This document shows, piece after piece, positions 3,996-61,952 of a stretch of DNA of 64,000 nucleotides; the first letter of the stretch is position 1, and each line of letters begins with the position of its first letter. The notes beneath the pieces were generated by a model. The model saw only the letters and a program-made list of their open reading frames with translations. It was not told where the DNA came from and ran no database searches. The translations under genes were made by a program, and so were the position numbers. Source of the stretch: an uncultured Candidatus Saccharibacteria bacterium (GTDB lineage: Bacteria; Patescibacteriota; Minisyncoccia; SW-4-49-11); the NCBI GenBank assembly GCA_964585065.1, contig CAZPCB010000002.1, positions 1,006 to 65,005 of the forward strand. Direction: 5' to 3'.

Positions 3996-4052
3996 CCCAC
4001 TCAAAGGTTCGAACATCGTCTAGCTCGCGGAGCCAACTCTCTTTAAATAGCT
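3996..4052. repeat. solo copy of the pseudo-tRNA-3' fragment joined directly to the downstream-flank motif (..cgcggagcca|actctctttaaatagc), i.e. an empty-site/attR-like junction
   Basis: Same fragment and flank as at 1354-1393/1574-1590, without the 182-bp unit between them. Confidence 0.6.
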
Positions 4053-4106
4053 TGATCGTAATATTCTCAATTAATGCTATACTACATGTATATTTAACTC
4101 TATTAT

Positions 4107-6321: not shown

Positions 6322-6488
6322 GCTATTATAGTAAGCTATATATATACTTTACTACATATATCTATCCATTTCAATTTGTAATCACTTCTCTCTTTTCAAA
6401 TTTATATACTTGTTAGCCATATAATACTTTAGTAGAGAACGTGTATTCTACTATACTAAAATAAAAGTGGATTAAGCACTACTGTCTA

Positions 6489-6517
6489 CCAGTCAAACAT
6501 CGTCTAGCTCCCGAATC
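6489..6517. repeat. short fragment of the pseudo-tRNA-3' repeat (aaacatcgtctagctcccgaatcc)
   Basis: Similarity by eye to 4012-4036. Confidence 0.35.
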
Positions 6518-6573
6518 CTAGATGATGTGGGCAACGTATTAATACAAATCTAATTACCAAATTATTATATTTA

Positions 6574-7302
6574 TCATCTATTTATCCAGGCAAAAATTCT
6601 GTTCAATTCCGATACAATATCCCGATCTAATATTTTTCCATGAGCTATTATAATTCTTTTTGGATTTAAAACTTTAACCCGATCAATTGATTTTTTTAAT
6701 AATTGATGATTACCCCAAAACAATGTTCTCTGGTCTCTCGTTGTGCCTCCATTTGGATGCAAAGCCCCACCTATATATGCTAAAGCTCGGAAAAATGGAT
6801 TGATTTTCTTTGCTTCAAAATTCTCTATAATATCAGTTACAATCCAAGATTTGCTAGGAATATGAAAAAAAGTGTATTCAGTCATAAATCGATTACCAAA
6901 CATAGGTAGAATCTCTAAATCTGGGAAATAATCCCGATCTATGTCTTTTAATTCCCTATCCCATCGTATTGATTGCCCTGCTTGCTGACTTCGCTTTTGA
7001 ACTCCATCACTAGCAAAAGTAATAGCTTCTGGATAGGCTTTTTGAAAATCCTGTATATACCAATAGTGAATTTTATTTGGAGAGATTAAATACTTTACAT
7101 TTCCCAACTCATCTAATTCTTTTTTCAAAGAACTCGTTAAACTAATTGGAGAGTGGATAAAAAGGTCATTATTAGAAAATCTTATTACTACCATTCTCGT
7201 AGTAAATGGCATTCCATAAAAATATATTATAGGACCATCTACAATCCATAGATTTTCACTAATTAATTTTAACGTATGTATTGGTTGATACAAATTATCC
7301 AT
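6574..7302 (-). CDS. conserved hypothetical protein (possibly DUF4336-like/MBL-fold related)
   Basis: 242-aa ORF; the family assignment is memory-based and weak. Confidence 0.5.
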   Translation of the reverse strand: MDNLYQPIHTLKLISENLWIVDGPIIYFYGMPFTTRMVVIRFSNNDLFIHSPISLTSSLKKELDELGNVKYLISPNKIHYWYIQDFQKAYPEAITFASDGVQKRSQQAGQSIRWDRELKDIDRDYFPDLEILPMFGNRFMTEYTFFHIPSKSWIVTDIIENFEAKKINPFFRALAYIGGALHPNGGTTRDQRTLFWGNHQLLKKSIDRVKVLNPKRIIIAHGKILDRDIVSELNRIFAWINR

Positions 7303-7430
7303 ATTATTTTTATGATTCTATTGTAATTATACACATTTATATATATTTTATCTACTTATAAAATTTATCTCCTCTCAAAACCATAGTGAGCCCCCTCTAG
7401 GGTAATGAGTGCTCTCTAACACTCATTTTT

Positions 7431-7460
7431 ATTATTGATTTTGAGAGAGTAGGATGAGAA
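7431..7460. repeat. fragment of the 182-bp unit (ttattgattttgagagagtaggatgagaa, matching 1436-1465)
   Basis: Similarity by eye; lies just left of the GC-rich island. Confidence 0.4.
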
Positions 7461-7541
7461 AAACTTAAGAATAAAGAATCCCCCCACTTAGGTGAGAGGA
7501 TTGTTGGAATTAGAGTTTACTTATCTTTCGTAGAGATTAAC

Positions 7542-8450
7542 TCAGTGATTTGCCTTTGCTAATAAAGCCTGTTTACTAGGAATCCGTAGCTGATAAGCCC
7601 AACCAAGACGCTCCAGAAATCGTATGAAGTAGTAGGTAGGGTCTGGTAGTGTTACTATCTTGTCCCCCCGTACTGTAAAACCCTGTCTTGCTGAATATTC
7701 GAAGCCATGATGTAGATTATGCCAACCCTCGCCAAGAGTGATAATAGCCACCCAAGTGTTGTTACGACTACCATCGCGGGTAATGAATGGCTGATCACCT
7801 ACTAAGTGGGCCACAGAGTTTACCGTAGCAACACCGTGGAACAAAAGAGTAGTGCTCAGACAAAATGCAACCAACCATTCTATACCACCGATATGCCAGG
7901 AGATCCAAGCTAATGCCAAAGCTGGCACTATATGTAGTCTATCGATCAAACGTAATACAGGATCAGACTCTATATCAGCTGGTAGGGTACTAGGATGAAA
8001 TCCAGGTGAAAGTATCCAACCTATCTGAGCATGCCAAAAACCATGCAGTCGATTTCTATACATCAGAGGGCTATGAGGATCATCCAAGGTATCAACATGA
8101 CGATGATGGGCCTTGTGATGAGCCTTCCACCAACTTGGTCCCATCTGGCCTGCTGAGGCTGTTATTATGGATCCGATCCACCATACTAGTCTAGGAGCCT
8201 TATAGCTACCATGAGTTATCAAGCGATGGTAAATGGCAGTAATTCCAAGCATCCGTACTAGGTATAATACTGTAGCCCAGAGTATGGCGCATAAGCCAAG
8301 TCTCTCCCGAAACAACAGTAGACAGCCTAGATGTGCAACCAGTATGAATACCGGTCCCATACCATGCAAAAACCGAAGGAGATGGGATTGGGAAATAGAA
8401 TGGGAAGATACTGCTGTGGAACTGATAGATTTTGAATTAAACATCAGCAT
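7542..8450 (-). CDS. membrane acyl-lipid/acyl-CoA delta-9 fatty acid desaturase (DesC-like)
   Basis: Three His boxes: HRLITH, HHKAHHRH..DPHSP, GEGWHNLHHGFEYSARQG. GC-rich codons. The ORF-track start (8513) is a TTG; the ATG at 8450 is more likely. Confidence 0.8.
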   Translation of the reverse strand: MLMFNSKSISSTAVSSHSISQSHLLRFLHGMGPVFILVAHLGCLLLFRERLGLCAILWATVLYLVRMLGITAIYHRLITHGSYKAPRLVWWIGSIITASAGQMGPSWWKAHHKAHHRHVDTLDDPHSPLMYRNRLHGFWHAQIGWILSPGFHPSTLPADIESDPVLRLIDRLHIVPALALAWISWHIGGIEWLVAFCLSTTLLFHGVATVNSVAHLVGDQPFITRDGSRNNTWVAIITLGEGWHNLHHGFEYSARQGFTVRGDKIVTLPDPTYYFIRFLERLGWAYQLRIPSKQALLAKANH

Positions 8451-8612
8451 ATTCCAGCCCAAACTGGACCATAAGGACATAAACACCTTAGCATACTTAT
8501 TATGTTTAATCAATATACAGAAATATATCTATTCTAGGATATGACACTTCTATCCTTCAAAGAAAAATCCCTCCAGCTGAGCCAAAGGGATTGAGTTAGA
8601 TTGAATTGTAGA

Positions 8613-9314
8613 TCAGATGAGAGCTGAGGCAGCCAGCTTGGCGATTTCACGGGTGGAGAATCCGATAGAGACCAAAGACTCCTGATACGCGATAAGGAAA
8701 TCCTCAATGAGGTCTTCCCTGTCCATTTGGAGGACGGCCGCGTCACCGGCTACCTGATCAAGCATAATGCGTACCAAGGGGAGATTGTCCCGATTGGCCT
8801 GCTCGAGCTCCTCACGACTGGCTTCAAAATTGGCTTTGAGCCATTCTTGGCCATAATTGAGATGAGTGTATTCATCCTTGACTACTCCCTCGGTGATTTT
8901 CCGCGCAAACGGATCGGCAACAGGTATATAGATGTGATAAGCTGCAATTGCAAAGGCCTCGATGAGAATCGCTTGAATCAGCAAACAGGTGACTACCTTC
9001 CTCTCTGTAAAAGCTTTTTGAAAATTGCCATGTAGGGGCAAGAAAAACTTTTTAGCAAAAGGTATATCTGCTTGCACTCCCAAGTTGCGGGCACAGGCAG
9101 TGAAACCCTTCATATGCCTCAGCTCCATACCCGCAAGGCGGGTAAGCTCTTCAGCCTGATCGGGTAGCAAGCTACCAAGGGAAATGTAATTGTCATAAGC
9201 TTCTTGCTCACCTTCAATCACAATGGCATTAATCCTACTATAGGCATCTTTGTAAATGGCGCTGGTGAAGTCAGGAAGAGAGATTTGTTCTTGAGAAAGA
9301 GCAGTTGTGTTCAT
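8613..9314 (-). CDS. aldehyde-deformylating oxygenase (cyanobacterial-type alkane-forming ADO, ferritin-like di-iron)
   Basis: The strings [71 protein letters not shown].. are close to the Synechococcus orf1593 family as recalled. ATG at 9314; the track start at 9338 is a TTG. Confidence 0.8.
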
Positions 9315-9446
9315 AATGGGTATTGGATAAAAATCCAAGAGGTCATTTTTATTATACGCCGCTTATTTTGCTTTGTATATATACACGAAATCATTGACAA
9401 TACCCCCTCAACACCCTATTATATACGTACTTTCTTTCATATCCTC

Positions 9447-9752
9447 ATGAAGCCAATTACAAGGAGTTCCAGAATTTCACTGATTGTGGGAACATTGATT
9501 AGAAAAAGATATCGTTATTATCATATAGAGAAAAAAGAGGCCATATTGCGTGGAGTAATATATGCTATACCTGGTCAAGTTCTTCCTCACTGCAATGGAG
9601 ATTGGACTGAATTAGAGCTGGGTTTATATGAATATTTTAGAACAAAGGGACAGCCTGGATCATTTAATGAGGAAGAGATGCAGACTCTTACTCGAGAGTA
9701 TTTCTCATCATTGCAAGCAACTATAGAATATATCACCCCCAAGGAAGACTAA
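9447..9752 (+). CDS. possible small hypothetical protein in the divergent ADO/CFA-synthase intergenic region
   Basis: ATG-initiated portion (101 aa) of track ORF 9204-9752; the upstream part overlaps ADO and is likely spurious. Confidence 0.15.
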   Translation: MKPITRSSRISLIVGTLIRKRYRYYHIEKKEAILRGVIYAIPGQVLPHCNGDWTELELGLYEYFRTKGQPGSFNEEEMQTLTREYFSSLQATIEYITPKED

Positions 9753-9865
9753 TCTCTTCCTTTTTTCTTTGCATAATTTGCTATAAATCCTCTTGGATAC
9801 TTGACTTTTACCTCATTTCCTGTTAGTGTTTCAAAGCATACTCTTCGGGGTATCGTTCTTTCACA

Positions 9866-11071
9866 ATGGAGCATTTAACCATGTCTGCTCAGACACGTGT
9901 TGAGAGATTTTTTGATAAAGCAGGAGTTGACCAAACCTTTATTACTGCAACTTCTAAGTTTTATAAAGCTTTCGATGGACGGTTCACCCTTGGAATGGGT
10001 GAATCTTATATCAATGGCAGTTTTGCGATTGGTGATGAGAATCTCATCGAAATGTTTACCAGAATTTTTGGAAGCTTAAATGGATTCTTGCGGGGAGATG
10101 ATTATGCTGGGTTTAGCTCACTGGGATTTTATCGGCTGTATCAGCTGATGAATGCCACCCAAATGATCAATTGGCAACACATCCGTGCAAAGTATTTTGC
10201 GGATATTCACTATGAGCTACCTCATCAGCTTTTTGTCCAGATGCTTGGCCCCTCTCGGGCTTATAGCTCTGGTTATTGGCCAGAGGGGGTGGAGACTCTA
10301 GACCAGGCTCAGGATGCCAAGTTTGACTTGATTATCCGCAAGCTTGGTCTCAAAGCCGGTGAAACCGTACTCGACTTCGGTTGTGGGGCGGGTAGTTTTG
10401 GCAGATATGCAGGATCTCGCGGTATTCGAGTCGTAGGACTCAATATCTGCCAGGAACAACTCGCTTATGCTCGAGCTCACAATGACCAAGAAGTTCCTGC
10501 AATTTACCTTGATTTTAATTTGGTAACACAAAGTGTTGCTGAGTTACAATCAATTCTCAAACCCTATGGGATTGAGAATTTCGATGCTGTTACCTTTATT
10601 GGCTCGATTGAGCATGTGGGTTGGAAGAACTATGCTTCTCTCTATCGCAAGCTCTATCAGCTTCTGAATCCTACGGGACGGATTCTCTGCCATGTTATTG
10701 GATCCTATATTCCATTACCGGTGGCCGATCCCTATATCATGACCAAGATTTTCCCTGACTCGCAGCTTGCTGTGATCAGTGAAATGACCAAGGCAACTGA
10801 GAAGACTGGCTTCCAGCTAATGGATTGGCACAACCTGGAAACAGGTGTTCACTCCTATGCCAAGACACTGAGAGCTTGGCTTAACAACTTCCAAACCAAC
10901 TGGGAAACTATCAAGCCCTCTATGCCTCACAAAGATAAGGAAGCCTTTTACCGAGAATGGGTATTCTACCTAATGCTCTGTATTGGAGCCTTCGAGTCTG
11001 ACTTTGTCAATGTTGGGCACTATGTGTTCCGCAAGACTGCAGACACTCACCCATTCACTCCAGTCCGCTAA
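9866..11071 (+). CDS. cyclopropane-fatty-acyl-phospholipid synthase family SAM-dependent methyltransferase
   Basis: 401 aa; SAM motif VLDFGCGAGSF; CMAS-like length and C-terminal region; GC-rich. Confidence 0.7.
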   Translation: MEHLTMSAQTRVERFFDKAGVDQTFITATSKFYKAFDGRFTLGMGESYINGSFAIGDENLIEMFTRIFGSLNGFLRGDDYAGFSSLGFYRLYQLMNATQMINWQHIRAKYFADIHYELPHQLFVQMLGPSRAYSSGYWPEGVETLDQAQDAKFDLIIRKLGLKAGETVLDFGCGAGSFGRYAGSRGIRVVGLNICQEQLAYARAHNDQEVPAIYLDFNLVTQSVAELQSILKPYGIENFDAVTFIGSIEHVGWKNYASLYRKLYQLLNPTGRILCHVIGSYIPLPVADPYIMTKIFPDSQLAVISEMTKATEKTGFQLMDWHNLETGVHSYAKTLRAWLNNFQTNWETIKPSMPHKDKEAFYREWVFYLMLCIGAFESDFVNVGHYVFRKTADTHPFTPVR

Positions 11072-11086
11072 GCCCTGAATACTCAC

Positions 11087-11113
11087 CGAGGGAAGCCCAG
11101 CTTCCCTCTTTTT
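11087..11113 (+). terminator. rho-independent terminator (gagggaagc-cca-gcttccctc + T6)
   Basis: Hairpin plus T-run directly after the CFA-synthase-like stop. Confidence 0.6.
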
Positions 11114-11184
11114 TATTACTCTTGTTATTTTCCTAATAATATACTATGATAAAGCGGTTGTGAAACTAATAATATACTAAATAT

Positions 11185-11544
11185 ATGAAGAATTTAGGTA
11201 TAGAGATTGTTGGAGATTTAAAAGGTATTGATAAAGAATTTTTAACCCATATTAATAGTGATGAAATTCAGGCTGAGATTTCTCGGCTTATCTCTCATTA
11301 TGGATTTCATGAGCTTGGAAACTATTATCATTCTTTTGAGCCAGGACTCACAGCTGCTGTCGCTCTTGCCGAATCTCATGTAACCTTTCATACTTGGCCT
11401 GAATTTGGGTATGTAAGTTTGAATGTTTTTACCTGTAATTATACCAAAGATAATGATGATAATGCCAAAGCTTTATTTGATGATATCGCCTCCCTATTCC
11501 GAGCAGAGAATATAGATAAACAAATCATTTTACGTAATCATTAG
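11185..11544 (+). CDS. speH: S-adenosylmethionine decarboxylase proenzyme (small bacterial/archaeal SpeH type)
   Basis: 119 aa; ESHVTFHTWPEFGYVSLNVFTC matches the AdoMetDC processing-site region (ESH.S.HTWPE). Confidence 0.7.
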   Translation: MKNLGIEIVGDLKGIDKEFLTHINSDEIQAEISRLISHYGFHELGNYYHSFEPGLTAAVALAESHVTFHTWPEFGYVSLNVFTCNYTKDNDDNAKALFDDIASLFRAENIDKQIILRNH

Positions 11545-11550
11545 AAATAA

Positions 11551-11580
11551 AAAAGCCCCCGACAAATGCTGGGGGCTGAG
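11551..11580. terminator. bidirectional terminator hairpin (gccccc-N10-gggggc) between convergent speH and the 11598-11864 ORF
   Basis: aaaagcccccgacaaatgctgggggct. Confidence 0.55.
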
Positions 11581-11597
11581 TGGAAGGGCAAAAGCCC

Positions 11598-11864
11598 TTA
11601 TTTGTGTACCTGTGAAGGCATTGGAGGGTTGGGGTCGGTCGGATCCACACCCAACAGCGCCGGCACAGTTAGGGCTGCAAGGCCCACAACCAAAAGACCT
11701 AGCAACACCTTCTTGAAGGGTGAGCGACGATCCTGACGTGGACGAGGGGGCAGAGGGGGATCGAGCACAACTCGATCCCCTTTGAAGTTACCCCCTTTGA
11801 GAAAAGCAGGAAGCTGAGGTTCCACTTGGCCAACATTGAGAAAGGCGGGGAGTTCAGGTGCCAT
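11598..11864 (-). CDS. hypothetical Pro-rich protein with a C-terminal hydrophobic segment; GC-rich
   Basis: 88 aa, ATG start; composition (~58% GC) is foreign relative to its flanks. Confidence 0.3.
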   Translation of the reverse strand: MAPELPAFLNVGQVEPQLPAFLKGGNFKGDRVVLDPPLPPRPRQDRRSPFKKVLLGLLVVGLAALTVPALLGVDPTDPNPPMPSQVHK

Positions 11865-11986
11865 TGAATGAACAAAACAATGTAGTTCGAAAAAAATTAT
11901 ACCACAAAAACCCTATTTTGTCAATATATAATAACACTATTTTAGCATATGCTTGCGAATTTTACTGAAAAAGGTATACTATCTCT

Positions 11987-43929: not shown

Positions 43930-45822
43930 TTGACGATATTCTTTAGAATTGTTAATCTAACATATATACATCAAAAAAAATATACTATGTTTAGATCACG
44001 CAAATCTCTGTTTATCTTTTTAGGATTTGCTATTATATTAAGTTTTGCTATAGGATACAGTATTCCAAATAATTTTATTCAATCACCACAAATAAATCCT
44101 TCAGATACCATTCCCACAGAATCTTTTTCTGAGCAAAATCTTCATTATTCCTATCTTAATGATAAAAACTATTTTGAAGAAGCCTTTCAAAATTTACCTC
44201 AACCGACAAATTCCAAGAGTGAGGATATAAAAGGTCTTATTATACCTCATCATCTGGTCGCAAAAAAACTTATTGCTAATGCCTTTAATCAAGTTACATC
44301 TGATAAACCTCTTACAGTATTTCTTATTAGTCCTAATCACTTTAATACTGGTCGAGGGCAAATCATCACATCTCAATATGACTGGAGTACTCCCTATGGT
44401 ATTATTGAGCCCAATACTCAAATAATTGATAAGCTGATTGAAATTAATACTACTATAAAAATAGATGAATCTCCATTTACTAATGAACATGGAATATCAA
44501 ATGAAGTTTCTTTTATCAAAAAAACTCTTCCTCAGGCTCAAATTGTCCCCCTTATTATTAAAGATACAATATCACAGAATCAAATTAATACTTTTGTTGA
44601 TAATTTAACTCAAAATCTTCCAGAAAATTATCTTTTCGTTGCTTCCCTAGACTTTTGTCATAATAAAGGAGTTACCATATGTAATCAAAATGATAAAAAA
44701 AGTCTTTCTATTCTCTCCAAATTTGACTATAAAGACACTAAAAGTGTTGATGTAGACTCTCCAGCAGGATTACAAATACTATTACAAAGTCTCAATAAAC
44801 TTGGCTATTCTCAATTTAATCTTCTAGAAAATACTAATTCTGTAAATATTATAGGAGAAGCACCTAATGATGAAATGGTCAGTTATATTACAGGATATAT
44901 CACCAAAAAATCTGAGAGCAAAAAAGTAGATATATTATCTTTTGGGGATATGATGCTTGATAGATATATGCGTAATGCCATTAATTCTAGAGGTTTTGAT
45001 GCTATTTTTGAGAATATGAGAAGTATTATTAAGGATAAAAATATTATTTTAGTTAATTTAGAAGGAAGTTTCACCTCCTTTACCCCAAAACCCCTTAATC
45101 CTAATAATGTACAATTTACTTTTGACCCTGCCATTGTACCTAAATTAAAAGACTTGGGATTTACTCATTTTGGACTTGCTAATAATCATTCTCTTGATTT
45201 TGGATTGGCTGGGCTTAATCAAAACAAAGATTTTCTCAGTAAATCAGGTATAGACTATTTTGGAGAACCCAATAATAAAGATGCTATTTCCTTTATTCAA
45301 TCAGTTAATGATATGAATATTGGACTTATTGGATATCATGAATTTAATAATCCTGATACCAGTTCTGTAATACAAGAAATCAAATCTCTCAAGGATAAAA
45401 CTGATTTTATTATAGTATATCCACATTGGGGTATTGAATATCAAACTCAATTCTCTAGAGGGCAGCAAGTTAAGGCTTATCAATTTATTGATGCGGGGGC
45501 AGATGCCGTAATTGGAGCTCATCCACATGTTATACAACCAATAGAAATATATCAAAATAAACCTATATTCTACTCCTTAGGAAATTTTATATTTGACCAA
45601 ACATTTTCAAAAAACACCCAACAAGGATTAGCTCTTAATATTACCCTACAAGATAATAGTGCTACTTATACACTAATCCCTCTTGAGTCTCGTAACTTAA
45701 TTCCTTATATTGCAGAGGATAATTCTCGTAAAACAACACTCTCAAATCTTGCTGAGAATTCATCTGTTTCAGAAGATATAAAATCTCAGTTAGAATTGGG
45801 GATAATTAATTTGAATCGATAA
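43930..45822 (+). CDS. fusion protein: N-terminal Memo-like (AmmeMemoRadiSam system protein B-type) domain + C-terminal CapA/PgsA metallophosphatase-fold domain
   Basis: The N-terminal half has IIPHH...FLISPNH...TNEHGISNEVSFI (Memo/LigB-like). The C-terminal half has FGDMMLDR..NLE..LANNHSLDFG..IVYPHWGIEY..GADAVIGAHPHVIQPIE..YSLGNFIF, the canonical CapA pattern. Confidence 0.6.
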   Translation: MTIFFRIVNLTYIHQKKYTMFRSRKSLFIFLGFAIILSFAIGYSIPNNFIQSPQINPSDTIPTESFSEQNLHYSYLNDKNYFEEAFQNLPQPTNSKSEDIKGLIIPHHLVAKKLIANAFNQVTSDKPLTVFLISPNHFNTGRGQIITSQYDWSTPYGIIEPNTQIIDKLIEINTTIKIDESPFTNEHGISNEVSFIKKTLPQAQIVPLIIKDTISQNQINTFVDNLTQNLPENYLFVASLDFCHNKGVTICNQNDKKSLSILSKFDYKDTKSVDVDSPAGLQILLQSLNKLGYSQFNLLENTNSVNIIGEAPNDEMVSYITGYITKKSESKKVDILSFGDMMLDRYMRNAINSRGFDAIFENMRSIIKDKNIILVNLEGSFTSFTPKPLNPNNVQFTFDPAIVPKLKDLGFTHFGLANNHSLDFGLAGLNQNKDFLSKSGIDYFGEPNNKDAISFIQSVNDMNIGLIGYHEFNNPDTSSVIQEIKSLKDKTDFIIVYPHWGIEYQTQFSRGQQVKAYQFIDAGADAVIGAHPHVIQPIEIYQNKPIFYSLGNFIFDQTFSKNTQQGLALNITLQDNSATYTLIPLESRNLIPYIAEDNSRKTTLSNLAENSSVSEDIKSQLELGIINLNR

Positions 45823-48398: not shown

Positions 48399-49610
48399 TT
48401 AATTCATTTCACAAGCAATACCATCTTCATCTCTGTCCCGACTAAGTCGATAATTAGGGTCATTTTTAGGGAAATTACCCAGTCCCTTTTCATTTAATGT
48501 ATCACAACTTCCAGGAATATATTCACTAGCTGACTTAGTACTTTGTTTTTTTTCAGTTATAGGTTCTATATTTGGTGGTGTGGGTATGCTTGGTTTTTGG
48601 GGTTTATTTATTTGAGCTTGTAACCTTTCAGCTACAGCCTTACTTGTATCACCATTACAGGTGTTTGGTGACCATAAGCCTTTATTATTATCTCTAGACT
48701 CTTTTTGATATTGATTAAATTCTTCCAGTTTTGGATGAGGAAATTTAGTATAAGAATTAGCATATCCCTGTTTTACCATCTCCGCATTATAGAATAGTCC
48801 ATCTTTACGATATACATAGGCGAGAGTTCTCCCATATTTATCTATGCGATTAGCTGGATCAAATTCCAAATACACTTCTTGATTATCTAGTAGCTCTTTT
48901 GCCTTATTACTCGCTTCCTCACCGTAGCATTGCACAGGTTTACGAGGATCTTTCGTTTCTGGAGTATCTATACCAATTAATCGTATTGTTCCTAAATCAT
49001 TTACTTTTATTGTATCTCCATCCACCACTGCAGTAACGGTAAATAATTTAGTATCTTGGGTATTATTATCATTTCCTAGAATTAATTTATTAACTTCTAT
49101 TGTCTTATTTATATCTTGAGCCTCTTTATCATCCCCTGTATCATAATCAGGATTAGCAATAATATTCAGGTTTGGAGAATTTTTTTCTTCTGAAGAAGTA
49201 GTGTTATCTATTGATACCGTTTTAGTACTATTAATAGTATTAAATGGAATAATACTATTAGAATAGGCAATTGCAGCAATACTAAATAAAACATAAATAC
49301 TAATAAATAGTATACTTATTGATAATAATCTCCTTAATTTTGGCCTATCTTTATTTTTCTTTTTTATATACGGTATATTACGAATACCCCATATCCATAA
49401 AGGAAGTACAATTAAGCATATTAATAAGGATATATAGGGTATAAAGAATGAAGTTATAAGTATAATACTACTAATAACAATAATCTTATGTTTACGCCAT
49501 AAGATAGCTATTAGCTGTTGTAGTTCCGATCCCATCGATTCATTTTGAACTAATTTTTCCTGCTGCTTTTCTTCTTTTTCTATCATACAGTTATATATTT
49601 CTTTATTCAT
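48399..49610 (-). CDS. membrane-anchored thermonuclease (SNase-like) with a C-terminal Excalibur Ca-binding motif
   Basis: VVDGDTIKV..IRLIGIDTPE..YGR..AYVY (SNase fold); C-terminal DRDEDGIACE; N-terminal TMs. Confidence 0.8.
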   Translation of the reverse strand: MNKEIYNCMIEKEEKQQEKLVQNESMGSELQQLIAILWRKHKIIVISSIILITSFFIPYISLLICLIVLPLWIWGIRNIPYIKKKNKDRPKLRRLLSISILFISIYVLFSIAAIAYSNSIIPFNTINSTKTVSIDNTTSSEEKNSPNLNIIANPDYDTGDDKEAQDINKTIEVNKLILGNDNNTQDTKLFTVTAVVDGDTIKVNDLGTIRLIGIDTPETKDPRKPVQCYGEEASNKAKELLDNQEVYLEFDPANRIDKYGRTLAYVYRKDGLFYNAEMVKQGYANSYTKFPHPKLEEFNQYQKESRDNNKGLWSPNTCNGDTSKAVAERLQAQINKPQKPSIPTPPNIEPITEKKQSTKSASEYIPGSCDTLNEKGLGNFPKNDPNYRLSRDRDEDGIACEMN

Positions 49611-50990: not shown

Positions 50991-51347
50991 ATGAGTGAAG
51001 AAAAGAAGACCTCTAAAAAAGTAACCATAGTCCCAACTGATAGACAAAAAAATATTGCCGCTATTAGCTATATATTCTTTATTATTGGATATTTTACCGT
51101 AGAAAAAGACTCTCCTTTTGTGAAATTTCATATGAAACAATCTCTCACTTTATTAATTTTTGCTGCTGCTATTAGTTTTACTCTAAGTATTTTTGGGATT
51201 ATACCTATATTAGGTTGGTTAATTGCTTTTTTGGGTGGTATTCTTTCTCTTATTTTATTTGTTATTGGAATTATTAATGCCTTATCTGGAGAAGAAAAAG
51301 AGCTTCCTCTTATTGGTAAATATACTGAAAATTTATTCAGTTTTTAA
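50991..51347 (+). CDS. small multi-TM membrane protein (DUF4870-like)
   Basis: 118 aa; FVKFHMKQSL motif and 3 TMs. Confidence 0.4.
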   Translation: MSEEKKTSKKVTIVPTDRQKNIAAISYIFFIIGYFTVEKDSPFVKFHMKQSLTLLIFAAAISFTLSIFGIIPILGWLIAFLGGILSLILFVIGIINALSGEEKELPLIGKYTENLFSF

Positions 51348-52867
51348 GCTACTTTTTCGCGATATTGTAAGGCTTCTGCAATATGAGTTATTTGAATATT
51401 CTCTGAATGAGCGATATCCGCAATGGTGCGGGATAATTTGAGAATTCTATTATAGGCTCTGGCGGATAAATTCATTTTCGTGACAGCTTGGGTTAGAAGA
51501 TGTTGTGAGGCTTTATCTAATATACAAATTTCTTGAATTTGTTTTATATTCATTTCACTATTGGTTTTAATTCCCATATGTTGAAATCGTTCTTTTTGTA
51601 TTGCACGAGCTTTTTCTACTCTATTACGAATTGACTCTGATGATTCTTCTAATACTTCTGAAGGCTTAATTAATTCTTCAGTTTTGACTTTTTCTACCTG
51701 AATAATCATATCTATTCTGTCGAGTAATGGCCCGGATATTTTTTGCTGATAGCGTACAATTTGAGCTTGAGAACAAATACATTCTCTATCATTATCAGTA
51801 AGATAGCCACAAGGGCAAGGATTTTGGCTAGCAATAAGCATAAAGTCAGCAGGAAAGGTTAGAGATCCCTGTGCTCTGGATATTGTCACTATTCTATCTT
51901 CTAATGGTTGCCGTAAACTTTCTAATACTAATCGAGGAAACTCCGGAAATTCATCCATATAGAGCACTCCGCGATGAGCGAGACTAATTTCACCTGGTTT
52001 AGGAAAACTCCCGCCTCCGATTAAAGAAATGGACGATGCGGTATGATGTGGTGCTCGAAAGGGTCTACTAATTATGAGTGGGTTATCTGAACTCAGATTT
52101 CCTGCAATACTATATAATTGAGAAACTTCTAATACTTCTTCCCTATCCATTATCGGTAATATGGTGGGTATGGTTCGAGATAATAATGTTTTACCAGCCC
52201 CTGGAGGTCCTGTCATTAATATATTATGCGCTCCCGCGGCTGCGATTTCTAAAGCTCTTTTGGCGAGCTTTTGTCCTCGTATATAAGACATATCTATATC
52301 AGATATATGAGGTTTGGGTATAAAATGATAGGGAGGAGTAGCTTGAATTTGTGTATGTACTTTATTATCAAAATGATCAATTAATTCCTGTATATGACTA
52401 ATGGCTAAAATGGTTATGCCCTCTACAAGAGAAGCTTCTTTGGCATTATCTGCTGGTATAATAATAAAGGGTATATGTTGTTGTTTGGCATATATTGCAA
52501 TTGGTAATATACCTTGTACACCTCGTATTGATCCATCTAATCCCATTTCTCCAAGAATAATATATTCTTTTTCTGGAAATTGAATAAGTTCTAAAGCTTT
52601 TAAGATAGCTACCGCCATTGGTAAATCATAGGCTGTTCCAATTTTCTTTACTTCAGCTGGAGCTAAATTAAGTACAAATCGTTTTTGGGGTAAAACAATG
52701 CCACTATTTTTAAGCCCTAAGCGCATACGCTCTTTAGCTTCATTGATAGCAGTATCGGGTAATCCAACTATTGTAATACCTGGTAATCCCTGAGTCATAT
52801 CAACTTCAATCTCTATTCTTTGCCCATTTAGTCCTAGAGTTGCTGCTGATTGTACTCGGGATAACAT
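51344..52867 (-). CDS. comM: Mg-chelatase-like AAA+ protein YifB/ComM
   Basis: 507 aa; N-terminal ChlI-like subdomain, Walker A GPPGAGKT, C-terminal domain. Confidence 0.85.
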   Translation of the reverse strand: MLSRVQSAATLGLNGQRIEIEVDMTQGLPGITIVGLPDTAINEAKERMRLGLKNSGIVLPQKRFVLNLAPAEVKKIGTAYDLPMAVAILKALELIQFPEKEYIILGEMGLDGSIRGVQGILPIAIYAKQQHIPFIIIPADNAKEASLVEGITILAISHIQELIDHFDNKVHTQIQATPPYHFIPKPHISDIDMSYIRGQKLAKRALEIAAAGAHNILMTGPPGAGKTLLSRTIPTILPIMDREEVLEVSQLYSIAGNLSSDNPLIISRPFRAPHHTASSISLIGGGSFPKPGEISLAHRGVLYMDEFPEFPRLVLESLRQPLEDRIVTISRAQGSLTFPADFMLIASQNPCPCGYLTDNDRECICSQAQIVRYQQKISGPLLDRIDMIIQVEKVKTEELIKPSEVLEESSESIRNRVEKARAIQKERFQHMGIKTNSEMNIKQIQEICILDKASQHLLTQAVTKMNLSARAYNRILKLSRTIADIAHSENIQITHIAEALQYREKVA

Positions 52868-52871
52868 ATAT

Positions 52872-53981
52872 TTAATCTCGAATTGGCATTATAAGATAAA
52901 AGAAATCTGGAATATCAGGACTTTTGAGAATAACAGGAGAATCCGTATCATTAAGGTTGAATTGTATTGGCTTATCTTGGAATAATTGTATACCGTCCAA
53001 AAGATAATTATAATTAAAGGCTACAGCCAAATTAATTTCACCCGTACTATGTATAGGTAATTTAGTGGTATTAGCTCCAACTTGAGAATCTGAAGAACTA
53101 ATGCTCAAAGTACTATCATCTTGAATAGTTAATTTGACATCATGAACCGTATTCTGAGAGAATACTGAAGCTAATTTTATAGCCTGTACTAATTCCTGAC
53201 TATCTATATCAAATAATGTATTGAATTTTTGAGGAATAAGTCCTTCATATTGAGGAAAATTCCCTTCAATTAATTTTGATACTATTTCTACCGTATCAGC
53301 AATAATATGTATTTGAGAAGCTCCAAATTGTAATGTCACTTCTACTTCTTCTAGGGCGTCCAATACTCGAATAATTTCTGCTACTGTTTTACTTGGAATA
53401 ATAAGAGAAAAATTTTCTTCAGCAGGACTTGATAAAGTAATTCTCTTTTCACTAAGTCGAAATCCATCAGTTCCAACAAAAATTAATTGCTGATCTTTTT
53501 TTGCAATATATACTCCGGAAATTTCTGGGCGAAAATCATTTTTAGGTAAAGCACCATATACTGTCTTGAGAGCTTGCTTCAATTCTATACTTCCTACCAC
53601 TAATTGCTTATTTGCTTCTATTTGGGGAAGTTGTGGGAATTCATCTGCAATAATACCTTTGAATTCAGCAGTAATATCTTTTCCTTGTTCTATAGTAAGT
53701 TTATCATCTACAACCGTTAAATCTAATTTATCTTGTGGTAAATTTCGAATATAGGCAAGTAAAGTATCTTGAGGAATACAAATAGCCCCTTCAGCTTCTT
53801 CTTTTCCTCTAATATGTACCCGTATTCCAATTTCTAAATTGGTGGAGCTAATTGTGAGTGATCCTTTATCTCCTTGTAATAAAAAGGTTTGTAAAACTGG
53901 TAATGTTGTAGCTCGTGAAGAACTTTGCCGAGCTATACTCAGTCCCTTTAAAAGATTTTCTTGCAAACAGGTGAATTTCAT
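52872..53981 (-). CDS. dnaN: DNA polymerase III beta sliding clamp
   Basis: 369 aa, three-domain architecture, N-terminal MKF.C....L; immediately downstream of dnaA. Confidence 0.85.
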   Translation of the reverse strand: MKFTCLQENLLKGLSIARQSSSRATTLPVLQTFLLQGDKGSLTISSTNLEIGIRVHIRGKEEAEGAICIPQDTLLAYIRNLPQDKLDLTVVDDKLTIEQGKDITAEFKGIIADEFPQLPQIEANKQLVVGSIELKQALKTVYGALPKNDFRPEISGVYIAKKDQQLIFVGTDGFRLSEKRITLSSPAEENFSLIIPSKTVAEIIRVLDALEEVEVTLQFGASQIHIIADTVEIVSKLIEGNFPQYEGLIPQKFNTLFDIDSQELVQAIKLASVFSQNTVHDVKLTIQDDSTLSISSSDSQVGANTTKLPIHSTGEINLAVAFNYNYLLDGIQLFQDKPIQFNLNDTDSPVILKSPDIPDFFYLIMPIRD

Positions 53982-54331
53982 ATCTTCTCTATCTTACTCT
54001 ATTTCTATATATGTATTATACCTTGAATAATTCCTTTTTTCTAGTTTATTTGTTTTCTTGTCCTTTATTTATATAAAGTATAATAGTAGATAGTAGTATG
54101 TGTGGAAAAGCTGAAAACTGGTTTTTGACCGCATAAATACTGTGTGTCAAGTGGGGATATCATTTGGGATAAGTCTCTTATAACTTTGGGGATAAAACAG
54201 AGTGGGAAAAATCTCTGTGGATTAAGTCCTATTTATACACAATAGTATTCACAGAAATCTAGTGATTTTATATAAGTTATACACAACTTATTAACAATAG
54301 TTAAGGAATTACAAAGGAGGTTTTTTCTGTA
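53982..54331. promoter_or_regulatory. AT-rich dnaA-dnaN intergenic region with a cluster of DnaA-box-like 9-mers (each one mismatch from TTATCCACA/TGTGGATAA): candidate oriC segment
   Basis: tgtggaaaa (54099), tggggataa (54186), tgtggatta (54217), ttatacaca (54233 and 54267). Confidence 0.5.
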
Positions 54332-55774
54332 TTATGAAGATGCGGGATTTTCCTCATTATATAATTTATTTTTTAATAACGTAATATCTTGCTCAAGACT
54401 GTAATTGGTTACAATATCCTTTTTTACCTTATTCCAAGCATGCATAACTGTGCTATGATCTTTACCCCCTAATAATTCTCCAATATTAGGAAAAGTAAGC
54501 TTTAATTCTTCTCGAATTAAGTACATCGCAATTTGCCTTGGTATTGCGATATCTTTTTTACGGCTTTTAGACAATAAATCTTCTTTGGTAATATGAAAAT
54601 GTTCAGCCACGGTATCGAGAATCATATCAGTGTTCACAATACGTTGAGAATGAATTTGTCCCCCTTCAATTAACTTATCTACTAATTCAGGAGTAACTTT
54701 GGCTCCTAGAAGTTGTACTCGTCCAATAATTTTATTTAGAGCCCCCTCTAATTCACGCACATTGCTTCGTATGCGCTCAGCAATGACATAAATAATATCA
54801 TCATCAAGATGAAAATTCTTTTGAATACATTTACTTTTAAGAATAGCTACACGAGTTTCAAATTCTGGAATAGCTACATCCACAATCATACCTCCTTCAA
54901 ATCGAGACTTTAATCTATCATTTAAAGTCTTTATAGCACTTGGTGGTCTATCACTTGTGAATACAATTTGCTTATTATGAGCATAAAGTTCATTAAAGGT
55001 ATTAAAAACCTCATATTGAGTAGCCTCTTTACCCCCAATAAATTGAATATCGTCAATAATCAAGAGATCAACAGCTCTATGCCGAGCTTTAAAATCTTCC
55101 ATACGTCCATTTTTGAGAGAATTCATTAAATCTGAGATGAATACATCTGAGGTAACATACAGGATATTCTTATTCTTTTTATTGAGACTATTCGCAATAG
55201 CTTGAATAAGATGAGTTTTCCCTAATCCCACACCTCCATAAATAAATAAGGGATTATAACGAGTTCCAGGCTCATTTGCAACTGATTGAGCAGCAGCATG
55301 GGCAAGTTCATTGGATGATCCCACAATAAAATTTTCAAAAGTATAATTCTCTTTTAAGAGAGCAGTTCCACTGGGCTTAGCAGGGATAATAGTAGGCTCA
55401 GCATATTGATAATTGGGATCCGTATTCTCATTATTCTGCTTTTCCTCTATTTTAGACTTTTTCTCCTTTAATTCTTTATCTTTGAGGTTAATAACAGATT
55501 GAATAGCTTTAGGAGATTGTTTTTGGGTATTTTGAACTACATATTTTACCCGTTTTATAGAACCGGTAATCTTTTGAATGGAGTTTAGAATAGTAACATT
55601 AAATTTATTCTCAAGCCAATCCCGTGTAAAGGCGCTTGGTACGCAAATTACAATTTCTTTATCATCCATACTTATGGGATAAGTATTTTTGATCCACGTA
55701 TTAAACTGAGGTTTACTGATATTGAGTTCTATCTCACCTAATACTGAGTTCCAAACTCTTTGTTTCTCGTCCAT
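54332..55774 (-). CDS. dnaA: chromosomal replication initiator DnaA
   Basis: 480 aa; AAA+ GGVGLGKTHL; C-terminal DNA-binding domain. Confidence 0.95.
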   Translation of the reverse strand: MDEKQRVWNSVLGEIELNISKPQFNTWIKNTYPISMDDKEIVICVPSAFTRDWLENKFNVTILNSIQKITGSIKRVKYVVQNTQKQSPKAIQSVINLKDKELKEKKSKIEEKQNNENTDPNYQYAEPTIIPAKPSGTALLKENYTFENFIVGSSNELAHAAAQSVANEPGTRYNPLFIYGGVGLGKTHLIQAIANSLNKKNKNILYVTSDVFISDLMNSLKNGRMEDFKARHRAVDLLIIDDIQFIGGKEATQYEVFNTFNELYAHNKQIVFTSDRPPSAIKTLNDRLKSRFEGGMIVDVAIPEFETRVAILKSKCIQKNFHLDDDIIYVIAERIRSNVRELEGALNKIIGRVQLLGAKVTPELVDKLIEGGQIHSQRIVNTDMILDTVAEHFHITKEDLLSKSRKKDIAIPRQIAMYLIREELKLTFPNIGELLGGKDHSTVMHAWNKVKKDIVTNYSLEQDITLLKNKLYNEENPASS

Positions 55775-60383: not shown

Positions 60384-61952
60384 CTATTTCATTGCTTTCA
60401 TCATTTGTTTAGCAACAGCTTCAATAACGGGTACACTAACTGAATTCCCCGCTTGTTTATATAATGCAGAATCTGAAATATTTGGCAAAACATAATTCTT
60501 AGGAAATCCTTGAATTCTAAAGCACTCCAAAGGGGTTAACTTTCTAATACCTTTAGAATCCTTAATTATAGGTACATTATGTCCACCCATACCCATATTT
60601 GCAGTTAGTGTTGGACAAACCCCACTTTTATTTTCTCTAACATATTGTCTACGCCACTGGTAAACCTTTCCTTCTTCAACTACAAAATCTTTAAGTCTCT
60701 CAAATAGAGGTTTATTATTGTAATAATATTTTTCAGGAACATCTTTTTCCAGAAGATTAATAATATTTGTGGTTAGCTTTACTGGAGTAGGAAATTCAAA
60801 CTTATCAAAATAATATTTATTTTTAAAGCCTACAATATAAATCCGCTCTCTATTTTGTGGAATATTCCCATACTCCATGGTATTTAGAACCTTAGACCTT
60901 ACATAATAACCTAGTGATCTAAGAGTTTCCTCAATTACTTTGAATGTATTTCCCCCATCATGACTTTTTAGATTTTTAACATTTTCAAGCATAAATCCTT
61001 CTGGTTTTCTAGCTTCAATAATTTTTGCTATATCAAAAAATAAGTTACCTCTATTTTTGGGATCATCAAAACCTTTTCTATAGCCAGCAATTGAAAATGC
61101 CTGACAAGGAAATCCCCCTAAAATAAAGTCAAATTTGGGTAAATCATCTATTCCAACCTTTCGAATATCTTCTACAACAAGTTTAGATTTTTTAAAGTTT
61201 ACATCATAGGTATCTTTACATTTCGCATCAAAATCATTTGCAAATACCGTTTCAAATCCAGCATTTTCAAAACCAAGACGAATCCCCCCTACTCCAGCAA
61301 AAAGATCAATAGTCCTAAATCTAGGTATATTTTTTTGAATTTCTGGATGTATAGATTGATTAACAATATTGCTAATTACTTGAACTACAACACCTCTCAC
61401 CTCAACTTCTTTTCTATAAAATGGTAAAAGGTTTTGATTTCTAGGCTCAAGTCTAAACCTATCTTTTTCCCGATAGATTTTTTTTAGTGTGGCTTCATTA
61501 TCATCTATGATAGCAACCACAGTCTGCCCATTTTCTGCAACAGACTGCTTTTTAATAATAACAATATCACCATCAAAAATACCCTCATCAACCATACTAT
61601 CACCAGCTACTTTTAAAGCATAATAACCTTCAGAGGATCTAATACTAGGATTTACAATTGAAACCGTATTATCAATATTTTCTATTGCTTCGATAGGGCT
61701 TCCTGCAGCGATAATCCCAATAATAGGTATCTCTAGTATAGATTTTACATTTATTTGTGGAGACAAGGTTCTTGCTGAGTTTGAGAGATAACCTTTTAAT
61801 TTTAAGGTATTAATATGCTCATGAACTGTCGATACAGCCTTAAGATTTAAGTGTTTACGAATCTCTTCTATGGTAGGAGCTACACCAACCTCATTGATAT
61901 ATGAAGTTATGAAATCAAATACCTCTTTTTGTTTTTTTGTTAGTGTTGACAT
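60384..61952 (-). CDS. fusion protein: complete LexA-like repressor (wHTH + S24 autopeptidase) fused to a C5-cytosine DNA methyltransferase
   Basis: Residues 1-~195 carry LexA features: an N-terminal HTH, an AAG cleavage site (GIIAAGSP), Ser (GDSM) and Lys (ATLKK). Residues ~205-522 carry methyltransferase motifs I DLFAGVGG, IV GGFPCQAFS, VI ENV, VIII QNRERIYIVG, X GNSV. It is a single stop-free frame with an ATG start. Confidence 0.75.
   Translation of the reverse strand: MSTLTKKQKEVFDFITSYINEVGVAPTIEEIRKHLNLKAVSTVHEHINTLKLKGYLSNSARTLSPQINVKSILEIPIIGIIAAGSPIEAIENIDNTVSIVNPSIRSSEGYYALKVAGDSMVDEGIFDGDIVIIKKQSVAENGQTVVAIIDDNEATLKKIYREKDRFRLEPRNQNLLPFYRKEVEVRGVVVQVISNIVNQSIHPEIQKNIPRFRTIDLFAGVGGIRLGFENAGFETVFANDFDAKCKDTYDVNFKKSKLVVEDIRKVGIDDLPKFDFILGGFPCQAFSIAGYRKGFDDPKNRGNLFFDIAKIIEARKPEGFMLENVKNLKSHDGGNTFKVIEETLRSLGYYVRSKVLNTMEYGNIPQNRERIYIVGFKNKYYFDKFEFPTPVKLTTNIINLLEKDVPEKYYYNNKPLFERLKDFVVEEGKVYQWRRQYVRENKSGVCPTLTANMGMGGHNVPIIKDSKGIRKLTPLECFRIQGFPKNYVLPNISDSALYKQAGNSVSVPVIEAVAKQMMKAMK

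Follow-up and report, generated by a model that had tools for sequence, protein, structure and literature searches.

A probable composite lipid-modification locus with picocyanobacterial-type genes in a bacterium of the Parcubacteria/Minisyncoccia type

A 64-kb stretch of bacterial DNA, here called the window, is the part of the host genome that was examined. Between 7.5 and 11.1 kb it carries three genes for putative lipid-modifying enzymes. A DesC-like delta-9-type membrane fatty-acid desaturase of 312 aa is encoded on the minus strand at 7542–8480. An aldehyde-deformylating oxygenase (ADO) is encoded on the same strand at 8613–9314 (233 aa from the conserved ATG; a longer open reading frame (ORF) starting with TTG reaches 9338). 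On the plus strand, positions 9866–11071 encode a clade-specific S-adenosylmethionine (SAM) methyltransferase of 401 aa that resembles cyclopropane-fatty-acid (CFA) synthases and is referred to as the CMAS-like protein in this report. These three assignments had been proposed in an earlier note on this DNA and are confirmed by matches to PF00487, PF11266 and PF02353, respectively. The host is judged to be a bacterium of the candidate phyla radiation (CPR). The region is probably (about 60%) a composite locus with accessory genes for lipid modification, assembled in at least three separate events in a freshwater clade of the Parcubacteria/Minisyncoccia.

The composition of the region clearly differs from its surroundings. 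In 400-nt segments the mean GC content outside the region is 0.333 (sd 0.037). Between 7.5 and 11.1 kb it reaches 0.44–0.495, which is 3–4 SD above the rest, and 24 of the 30 most GC-rich segments of the 64 kb fall within 7501–11601. The background GC content at third codon positions (GC3) is 0.225 ± 0.043 (51 of 55 ORFs, four outliers left out). The only outliers are the genes for the desaturase (GC 0.450, GC3 0.380, z = 3.6), the ADO (GC 0.476, GC3 0.500, z = 6.4) and the CMAS-like protein (GC 0.451, GC3 0.450, z = 5.2) and a small ORF, orf88 (GC 0.558; z = 6.3 for GC3). The GC-rich block is not continuous, since the GC content falls to 0.365 at 9200–9800, between the ADO and the CMAS-like gene. 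An additional GC-rich patch, which the earlier note does not mention, is located at 11400–11900 and corresponds to orf88. Thus, the compositional anomaly described in that note is real. Its estimate of 47–50% GC holds for the peaks and is slightly too high for whole genes (0.450–0.476).

The desaturase matches PF00487 with 67.5 bits (E = 2e-18, threshold 29.7). Its histidine boxes HRLITH, HHKAHHRH and GEGWHNLHH are intact and identical to those of the cyanobacterial homologues. No NCBIfam equivalog reaches its cutoff for this protein. Delta-9 regiospecificity is suggested by the GEGWHNxHH box and by homologues that are annotated as stearoyl-CoA / acyl-CoA desaturases. The closest relatives are CPR proteins with 96% and 83% identity, followed by P0183 (79%) and P0189 (71%). 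Both of the latter are encoded on contigs of 65–67% GC in a glnN-desaturase-RRM neighbourhood (P0183 on a cyanobacterial contig of 65% GC). Identities to the enzymes of Cyanobium, Vulcanococcus and Synechococcus are 65–73%. The CPR desaturases form one clade (100% bootstrap), which is sister (69%) to P0183. Furthermore, the desaturases of the window and of the related locus L097 have in common an N-terminal extension of ~35 residues, which the cyanobacterial homologues lack. The clade and the shared extension argue for a single origin, and the sequence relationships assign this origin to picocyanobacteria. The dN/dS value of 0.24 indicates purifying selection.

The desaturase gene is part of a cassette on the minus strand (7474–8537) that consists of a 57-nt leader, the coding sequence and a terminator. 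This cassette aligns with positions 1358–2419 of L097 (85.7% identity, 1,064 nt). Its direct neighbour in L097 is an esterase-like gene with 90% identity to that of L005, so that the cassette occupies a different genomic site there. The terminator hairpin found by the terminator scan (7477–7502, minus strand; AATCCTCTCAC..GTGGGGGGATT) is kept in L097 and L098. Neither terminal inverted repeats nor a target-site duplication are present at the cassette. Compared to picocyanobacterial DesC-type desaturases (PF00487), the enzyme has the same histidine boxes, is 65–79% identical and is nested in their tree. On the other hand, the CPR form has the N-terminal extension, its gene resides in a 1.06-kb cassette at different CPR sites and its GC3 is 0.38 versus 0.82–0.86. 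The desaturase sequence cluster also includes fragments of 155–200 aa from other relatives.

ADO scores 395.6 bits with TIGR04059 (cutoff 222.65) and 389.8 bits with PF11266 (E = 5e-117, threshold 28). In comparison with 2OC5 the di-iron motifs EGEQEA, MELRH, LIEAF and KDEYTH are intact, and none of the four CPR copies has lost them. Among named organisms, Cyanobium, Synechococcus and Vulcanococcus have the most similar enzymes (85–86% identity). All CPR ADOs fall inside the picocyanobacterial radiation in a tree with the S. elongatus enzyme as outgroup, the sequence of which was confirmed to be identical to PDB entry 4QUW_A. These relationships assign the ADO to picocyanobacteria of the Cyanobium/Synechococcus type. 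Among the CPR copies dN/dS is 0.08–0.13. The copy of the window keeps 150 of the 155 sites that are conserved in picocyanobacteria, and 147–150 are kept per CPR copy. No relaxed constraint is seen at these conserved, possibly AAR-docking sites (AAR, acyl-ACP reductase); the 5–8 changed sites per copy are all lineage-specific.

The CPR copies of the ADO gene are surrounded by expression signals of their own. A promoter and leader at 9315–9381 (minus strand; promoter scan and conservation) include the near-consensus promoter TATACA-17-TATAAT at 9379–9351. A perfect palindrome, TTGGAT-TTTT-ATCCAA, is located at 9338–9323 immediately 5' of the ATG and is present in all ADO-bearing CPR lineages. 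It could act as an operator, or fold into a hairpin and thereby mask the ribosome-binding site. The window, L003, L008 and L011 have ~70 conserved nt in front of the ATG. The terminator hairpin at 8566–8592 (minus strand; terminator scan) is kept in all ADO-bearing CPR lineages. Promoter, leader and terminator are unlike the flanks of the cyanobacterial ADO at the comparison locus L096. A pattern built on the leader matches all eight ADO-bearing CPR sequences (window, L001–L004, L008, L011 and L012) and none of 91 other loci. The same DNA pattern has no match in the metagenome collection although it fits every ADO-bearing locus, so that collection is without these contigs.

At L096, which encodes a Synechococcus CS-1325-type ADO (P0098), the gene order is ADO-AAR-accA-SDR-folE, and the AAR scores 611 bits with TIGR04058. 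A tblastn search with this AAR gave nothing in the 64-kb window or in the twelve related loci L001–L012 (GC content 0.33–0.36). Together with the CPR promoter, leader and terminator this indicates that the ADO gene was taken without its partner gene and was re-equipped with CPR expression signals. In comparison with the cyanobacterial AAR/ADO pathway (2OC5, 4QUW, 6JZU), the ADO is full-equivalog, its di-iron motifs are present and it is under purifying selection. Here, however, it resides in a non-photosynthetic CPR bacterium with no aar, accA or SDR gene beside it, with its own CPR-type promoter, palindromic leader and terminator and with a GC3 that has decayed to 0.49–0.65.

The CMAS-like protein matches PF02353 with 179.8 bits (E = 9e-53, threshold 27) and contains the SAM-binding motif VLDFGCGAGS. 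It aligns with residues 47–373 of E. coli CFA synthase 6BQC (E = 7e-38) over both domains. The bicarbonate site of the E. coli enzyme is formed by C139, E239, H266, I268 and Y317. In the alignment Glu, His, Ile and Tyr are kept and Cys is replaced by Ser (YSSGYW versus YSCAYW). Thus, E. coli Cfa (6BQC, PF02353) and the CMAS-like protein have in common the two-domain architecture, the SAM motif VLDFGCGAG and, in the alignment, four residues of the bicarbonate site. They differ in the Cys-to-Ser replacement, and the CMAS-like family is confined to the CPR clade, with at most 36% identity to homologues outside of it among the matches listed. The protein is also below the cutoffs of the other CFA and the mycolic-acid equivalogs. 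The product of the enzyme could be a cyclopropane, a methyl-branched chain or something else.

The family of the CMAS-like protein comprises ~30 proteins with 59–100% identity, and every member with examined context is located at a CPR-type locus. Beyond the clade, the matches listed come from Desulfobacterales, Gammaproteobacteria, Nitrospira, other CPR, archaea and others; no cyanobacterial relative is among them. A further scan of metagenome proteins found three clade members only. The gene has a GC3 of 0.34–0.46 in every lineage and is compositionally foreign throughout; its dN/dS of 0.08–0.30 corresponds to purifying selection. It is preceded by a conserved region at 9733–9865 (plus strand; 79% identity over 140 nt with L003) and followed by a terminator at 11088–11108 (plus strand; terminator scan). 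The next gene downstream encodes a S-adenosylmethionine decarboxylase (SAMdc; 11185–11544, plus strand; PF02675). SAMdc is the constant neighbour of the CMAS-like gene and syntenic in all relatives. Its GC3 of 0.23 is host-like, and it is located outside any foreign segment.

The order CMAS-SAMdc-(GC-rich spacer)-Alr is found in L003–L012 and L099, and the CMAS-SAMdc-Alr block is present in all clade members examined. In L005–L007, L009, L010 and L099 a rhodanese gene is directly upstream of CMAS, and neither ADO nor desaturase is present. The order is DUF4336-ADO-orf238-CMAS in L003/L004 and ADO-fasciclin-sortase-CMAS in L008 and L011/L012. Wherever ADO is present, it lies in front of the CMAS block (upstream) and is oriented away from this block. 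The desaturase is inserted between DUF4336 and ADO only in the species of the window; in L097 it is elsewhere in the genome. In the close relative L100 (2744–4934; Alr 89.5%, PsiS 96%) only fragments of DUF4336 and CMAS (residues 172–367) are present, with no ADO or desaturase. Accordingly, the locus can erode, and some lineages are losing their accessory lipid genes. The desaturase, the ADO and the CMAS-like gene each have their own terminator according to the terminator scan and hence are three monocistronic units. No integrase or transposase domains are found in the ORFs between 4.1 and 13.1 kb. There are no direct repeats or target-site duplication around the region, and the sole tRNA is 7 kb away.

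The CMAS and SAMdc alleles do not track the host genes. For instance, L003 and L010 are 80% identical in CMAS and 63% in Alr. For SAMdc the identity is 96% between L003 and L009 and 76% between the window and L003, and genomes with 96–99% identity in PsiS differ by 25–40% in CMAS. From these sequences the locus appears to be a hot spot of recombination in which the allelic lineages are deep. A SOUL haem-binding-like gene with a GC3 of 0.38–0.42 is found near the locus in L003 (4980–5696), L009 (563–1255) and L010 (1916–2608), and a NAMPT gene with a GC3 of 0.33 in L003 (3296–4714). Their raised GC3 suggests that they may be further foreign genes. A phage as donor or vector is not supported; viral contigs contain no relatives of ADO or desaturase, and the best phage match is 32% identical (Acinetobacter phage).

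The captured genes have been altered considerably since they left their donors. Donor-type GC3 values are 0.74 for ADO and 0.82–0.86 for the desaturase; those of the CPR copies are 0.49–0.65 and 0.37–0.38, respectively. Third-position changes were counted at same-amino-acid codons in comparison with the cyanobacterial copy. The ratios of GC-to-AT to AT-to-GC changes are 58:18, 38:26, 44:18 and 42:19 for the four ADO copies and 108:9 (window) and 103:9 for the two desaturase copies. Most of these changes are found in a single lineage. When amelioration is modelled with two rates and an equilibrium GC3 of 0.225, the residence per lineage, expressed in host dS, is ~0.07–0.3 for ADO and ~0.5 for the desaturase. 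The observed host dS between ADO-bearing genomes (0.15–0.76) is of the same order. The CPR copies differ from each other by 17–26% in protein sequence. On this sequence evidence the captured genes are older than the separation of lineages that differ by 1–13% in their core proteins. The long residence in the model accounts for a star-like ADO tree, for the greater similarity of each CPR ADO to Cyanobium than to its siblings and for the lack of shared derived residues. The conserved CPR-specific promoter, leader and terminator indicate that ADO was acquired once by the CPR clade.

The following history of the locus is proposed. The two-domain CMAS-like methyltransferase is the clade-wide resident of the CMAS-SAMdc-Alr block; it is compositionally foreign and, by the matches listed, not of cyanobacterial origin. 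ADO would have been captured once from a Cyanobium/Synechococcus type without aar and have gained a CPR promoter, leader and terminator. It would then have diverged and drifted towards AT independently in several lineages. The desaturase would likewise have been captured once from the same donor group, and its residence in AT-rich genomes was probably longer than that of ADO. It presumably moves between CPR genomes and sites as a single-gene cassette of 1.06 kb, which in the window would have landed between DUF4336 and ADO.

The following activities are predicted for the three enzymes. Saturated chains of lipids would receive a cis double bond from the desaturase. The methyltransferase may convert cis-unsaturated chains into cyclopropane or methyl-branched chains, and ADO may convert long-chain fatty aldehydes into membrane-soluble alkanes and formate. 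Enzymes of the CFA-synthase type naturally act on the class of compounds that the desaturase produces. Both ADO and the desaturase belong to the di-iron enzymes, depend on O2 and require electrons from a donor of the ferredoxin type. These needs are in line with life in oxic lake water alongside picocyanobacteria; a ferredoxin-type donor was not found in the 64 kb. Among the ORFs of the window that were scanned no fab, acc or acp genes were seen. According to a survey of freshwater CPR, these bacteria have neither fatty-acid synthesis nor beta-oxidation, and the formation of their membranes was called enigmatic (PMC9166423). As the three enzymes act on pre-formed acyl chains or aldehydes, lipid tailoring is the most economical reading for a CPR bacterium without fatty-acid synthesis. 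The cells would remodel the acyl chains of lipids scavenged from other cells.

Three adjacent GC-rich genes, with ADO and desaturase of cyanobacterial type, had led the earlier note to propose one island that was recently acquired from a cyanobacterium. The cyanobacterial origin is upheld for ADO, which is 85–86% identical to the Cyanobium/Synechococcus enzymes and nested in picocyanobacteria, and for the desaturase, whose CPR clade is sister to the copy on the contig of 65% GC with the glnN-desC-RRM neighbourhood. A recent transfer of all three genes as one block is nevertheless very improbable. The CMAS-like gene has no cyanobacterial homologue among the matches listed and is present in relatives without the other two genes. 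Its close relatives (59–100%) come from the host clade only, and best hits of this kind had been named in the earlier note as speaking against its proposal. L003, L008 and L011 have ADO and no desaturase. The desaturase is a separate cassette of 1,064 nt that is also found at another site. In cyanobacteria, on the other hand, ADO is accompanied by aar-accA and the desaturase is located elsewhere, beside glnN. The term 'recent' does not agree with the shift of GC3 from 0.74–0.86 to 0.38–0.65 with its GC-to-AT bias, nor with the divergence of the CPR copies, and this strong amelioration differs in degree among the three genes. The region has the deviant composition of an island, but its genes are not present or absent as one unit among the relatives. 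The sharp changes of composition at gene boundaries would also be expected of an assembly chimera or contamination, in which cyanobacterial reads were joined to a CPR contig. This possibility is practically excluded by independent assemblies. A 234-kb NCBI contig and two Logan assemblies also encode the exact proteins of the region, and over 10.5 kb L002 has the same sequence as the window (100% identity). L001, an independent strain from an unrelated run, is 98.7% identical over 7001–11730 and covers both junctions (~7500 and ~11100), for which the earlier note had asked for read support. Diverged relatives from JGI, ENA and Logan have the same layout. In addition, the GC3 of the genes (0.38–0.50) is far below that of real cyanobacterial copies (0.74–0.86), and the promoters and terminators beside them are rich in AT and have been conserved among the members of the CPR clade.

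The composite reading, with single captures of ADO and desaturase, is also confronted with a number of observations that weigh against it. The taxonomy of the host is based on the source labels of two related proteins. The CMAS-like protein is below the CFA-synthase equivalog cutoff (PRK11705/NF008686, 221.7 bits versus 400) and has the Cys-to-Ser replacement. An AAR or another aldehyde source, ferredoxin/FNR and lipid-synthesis genes could be located outside the 64 kb. The ADO protein tree does not group the CPR copies as one clade (8% support), and each CPR ADO is closer to the Cyanobium type (83–86%) than to its CPR siblings (74–82%). Shared derived residues were sought in the CPR ADOs and none were found. 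The pairwise dS of ADO is 1.1 to >2, in contrast to ~0.3–0.9 predicted by the amelioration model. ADO might thus have been captured several times from different picocyanobacteria, or its coding region might have been replaced repeatedly by recombination. The star-like, unresolved tree with its copies nearer to Cyanobium than to each other, a dS among CPR copies that is 2–4 times that of host core genes and the clear shuffling of CMAS and SAMdc alleles at the same locus all favour this alternative. It is considered unlikely, since homologous CPR-specific non-coding flanks surround ADO in all ADO-bearing lineages and are absent from the cyanobacterial locus, ADO is constant in its place upstream of the CMAS block and the GC-to-AT third-position changes common to three or four ADO copies (32) exceed the ~20 expected if they were independent. 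A different question is whether ADO serves the membrane. It may be kept for another role than membrane alkanes, e.g. the detoxification of fatty or lipid-peroxidation aldehydes from neighbouring phototrophs without AAR. Orthologues of ado and aar were found only in cyanobacteria, where neither occurs without the other and the two are adjacent in 76% of 181 genomes (PMC4094844). In none of the CPR loci, however, is AAR next to ADO. As no fatty-acid synthesis is reported for CPR, acyl-ACP is presumably missing as well (PMC9166423), and the strong constraint on ADO (dN/dS ~0.1) implies that it is used for something. On the other hand, the 147–150 kept sites of 155 give no sign of a changed substrate or partner, and the search for AAR covered only part of the genome. 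Such a role is regarded as a minor, although still serious, possibility. The reading as a composite lipid-modification locus is preferred.

The enzyme families and horizontal gene transfer into CPR are known. The new aspect is the combination, at one locus, of a constrained orphan ADO outside Cyanobacteria, two separate captures from the same donor group and a clade-private CFA-synthase-like gene. The ADO step was called unique to cyanobacteria (PMC3903477), and literature searches found no report of ADO outside cyanobacteria. Full-text searches also returned no paper in which ADO, desaturases or CFA synthases are connected with CPR. Precedents for horizontal transfer into freshwater CPR include haem-copper oxidase operons and rhodopsins (PMC9166423). 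For rhodopsins of the schizorhodopsin family an exchange between Minisyncoccota and cyanobacteria was inferred, with no symbiotic link known (bioRxiv 10.1101/2025.10.15.682728). These two papers do not mention ADO, desaturases or CFA-synthase-like genes. As in the known accessory transfers, foreign metabolic genes are found in a reduced genome, and there is a precedent for exchange with cyanobacteria. The present locus differs from them in its lipid/hydrocarbon cargo, in its single-gene cassettes and in the separate events that involve the same donor group.

Two separate captures from one donor group suggest that the association with freshwater picocyanobacteria, be it ecological or physical, has been a lasting one, and episymbiosis on picocyanobacteria is a plausible hypothesis. 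It is conceivable, albeit doubtful at present, that Parcubacteria lacking fatty-acid synthesis repeatedly took O2-dependent lipid and hydrocarbon enzymes from the picocyanobacteria they live on and use an orphan ADO, the desaturase and their private CFA-synthase-like enzyme to build their own membrane from lipids and aldehydes of these hosts. If this picocyanobacterial lipid reading were true, the protein would be the first ADO that works outside Cyanobacteria, uncoupled from acyl-ACP reductase. The locus would then be a genetic marker of a symbiosis between CPR and picocyanobacteria and a partial answer to how CPR tailor their membranes. The three enzymes can modify ready-made acyl chains and hence provide a testable handle on this tailoring. 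A constrained ADO in several CPR lineages with no AAR nearby raises the question of what supplies the aldehyde substrate and the electrons. Furthermore, the locus is a clean example of one acquired gene that ameliorates independently in sister lineages.

The window encodes DnaA, DnaN, DnaE, UvrB, a release factor, YchF, S6, SSB, FtsEX and YidC. These housekeeping genes identify the host as a cellular bacterium with ~34% GC, in agreement with the AT-rich host described in the earlier note. The flanking DUF4336 protein belongs to a 90%-identity cluster in which one member bears the label 'Candidatus Parcubacteria bacterium'. The label 'Minisyncoccia bacterium' is attached to a member of the CMAS family; Minisyncoccia are a class of the phylum Minisyncoccota (Patescibacteria/CPR). 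By these source labels the host is judged to be of the Parcubacteria/Minisyncoccia type. The dnaA-dnaN pair at 52872–55774 (minus strand) suggests that a chromosomal replication origin is nearby.

Two small ORFs accompany the main genes. The candidate coding sequence orf101 (9447–9752, plus strand), located between ADO and the CMAS-like gene, has a host-like GC3 of 0.29 and is a called gene in L001 and L002. It has no Pfam or NCBIfam match and no homology to the ORFs at the same position in L003, L008 and L011. The GC-rich hypervariable spacer between SAMdc and Alr (11545–11986) is present in every clade member and contains orf88 (11598–11864, minus strand). Its edges are conserved, the core has ~38% column identity, and there is an indel even in comparison with L001 of the same species. 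The minus-strand ORFs of the spacer in relatives are 22–50% identical to that of the window, and each has one hydrophobic stretch. Neither a protein family nor an Rfam entry matches orf88 or the spacer. The spacer may either encode a fast-evolving small membrane protein or be the remnant of an older foreign gene.

Several other genes of the window have uncommon features. A single ORF of 522 aa at 60384–61952 (minus strand) is an unusual fusion of three domains, namely LexA DNA-binding, S24 peptidase and C-5 cytosine DNA methyltransferase. A 630-aa ORF at 43930–45822 (plus strand) has a Memo-like domain fused to a PGA_cap (capsule synthesis) domain. A staphylococcal-nuclease and Excalibur protein, which is probably secreted, is encoded at 48399–49610 (minus strand) and a ComM-like protein of the Mg-chelatase family at 51344–52867 (minus strand). 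The latter two suggest a route for scavenging and uptake of foreign DNA that would be relevant to the entry of cyanobacterial genes.

The fragment of a tRNA-linked repeat that the earlier note had placed at the left edge of the region is confirmed. This dispersed host repeat fragment at 7426–7460 (plus strand) is located 14 nt outside the desaturase cassette, is 91% identical to 1427–1461 and is related to 182-nt units that follow tRNA-Asn. A 20-mer core of the repeat occurs four times in the window (0.03 expected), one of them at 7441, and it is also found in L010. The 182-nt unit forms a perfect tandem (335–516 and 517–698) that starts inside the 3' end of tRNA-Asn (279–353), and a third copy at 1374–1555 is 68% identical. 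An integrative element could have left the tandem behind as an att-like duplication; it could also be a MITE-like repeat or an artefact of the assembly. Other dispersed intergenic repeats with identities of up to 95% are located at 1354–1394, 3996–4036 and 6480–6520 and at 1563–1592 and 4024–4053. The dispersed intergenic repeats contain GC-rich motifs such as CTCGCGGAGCCAA.

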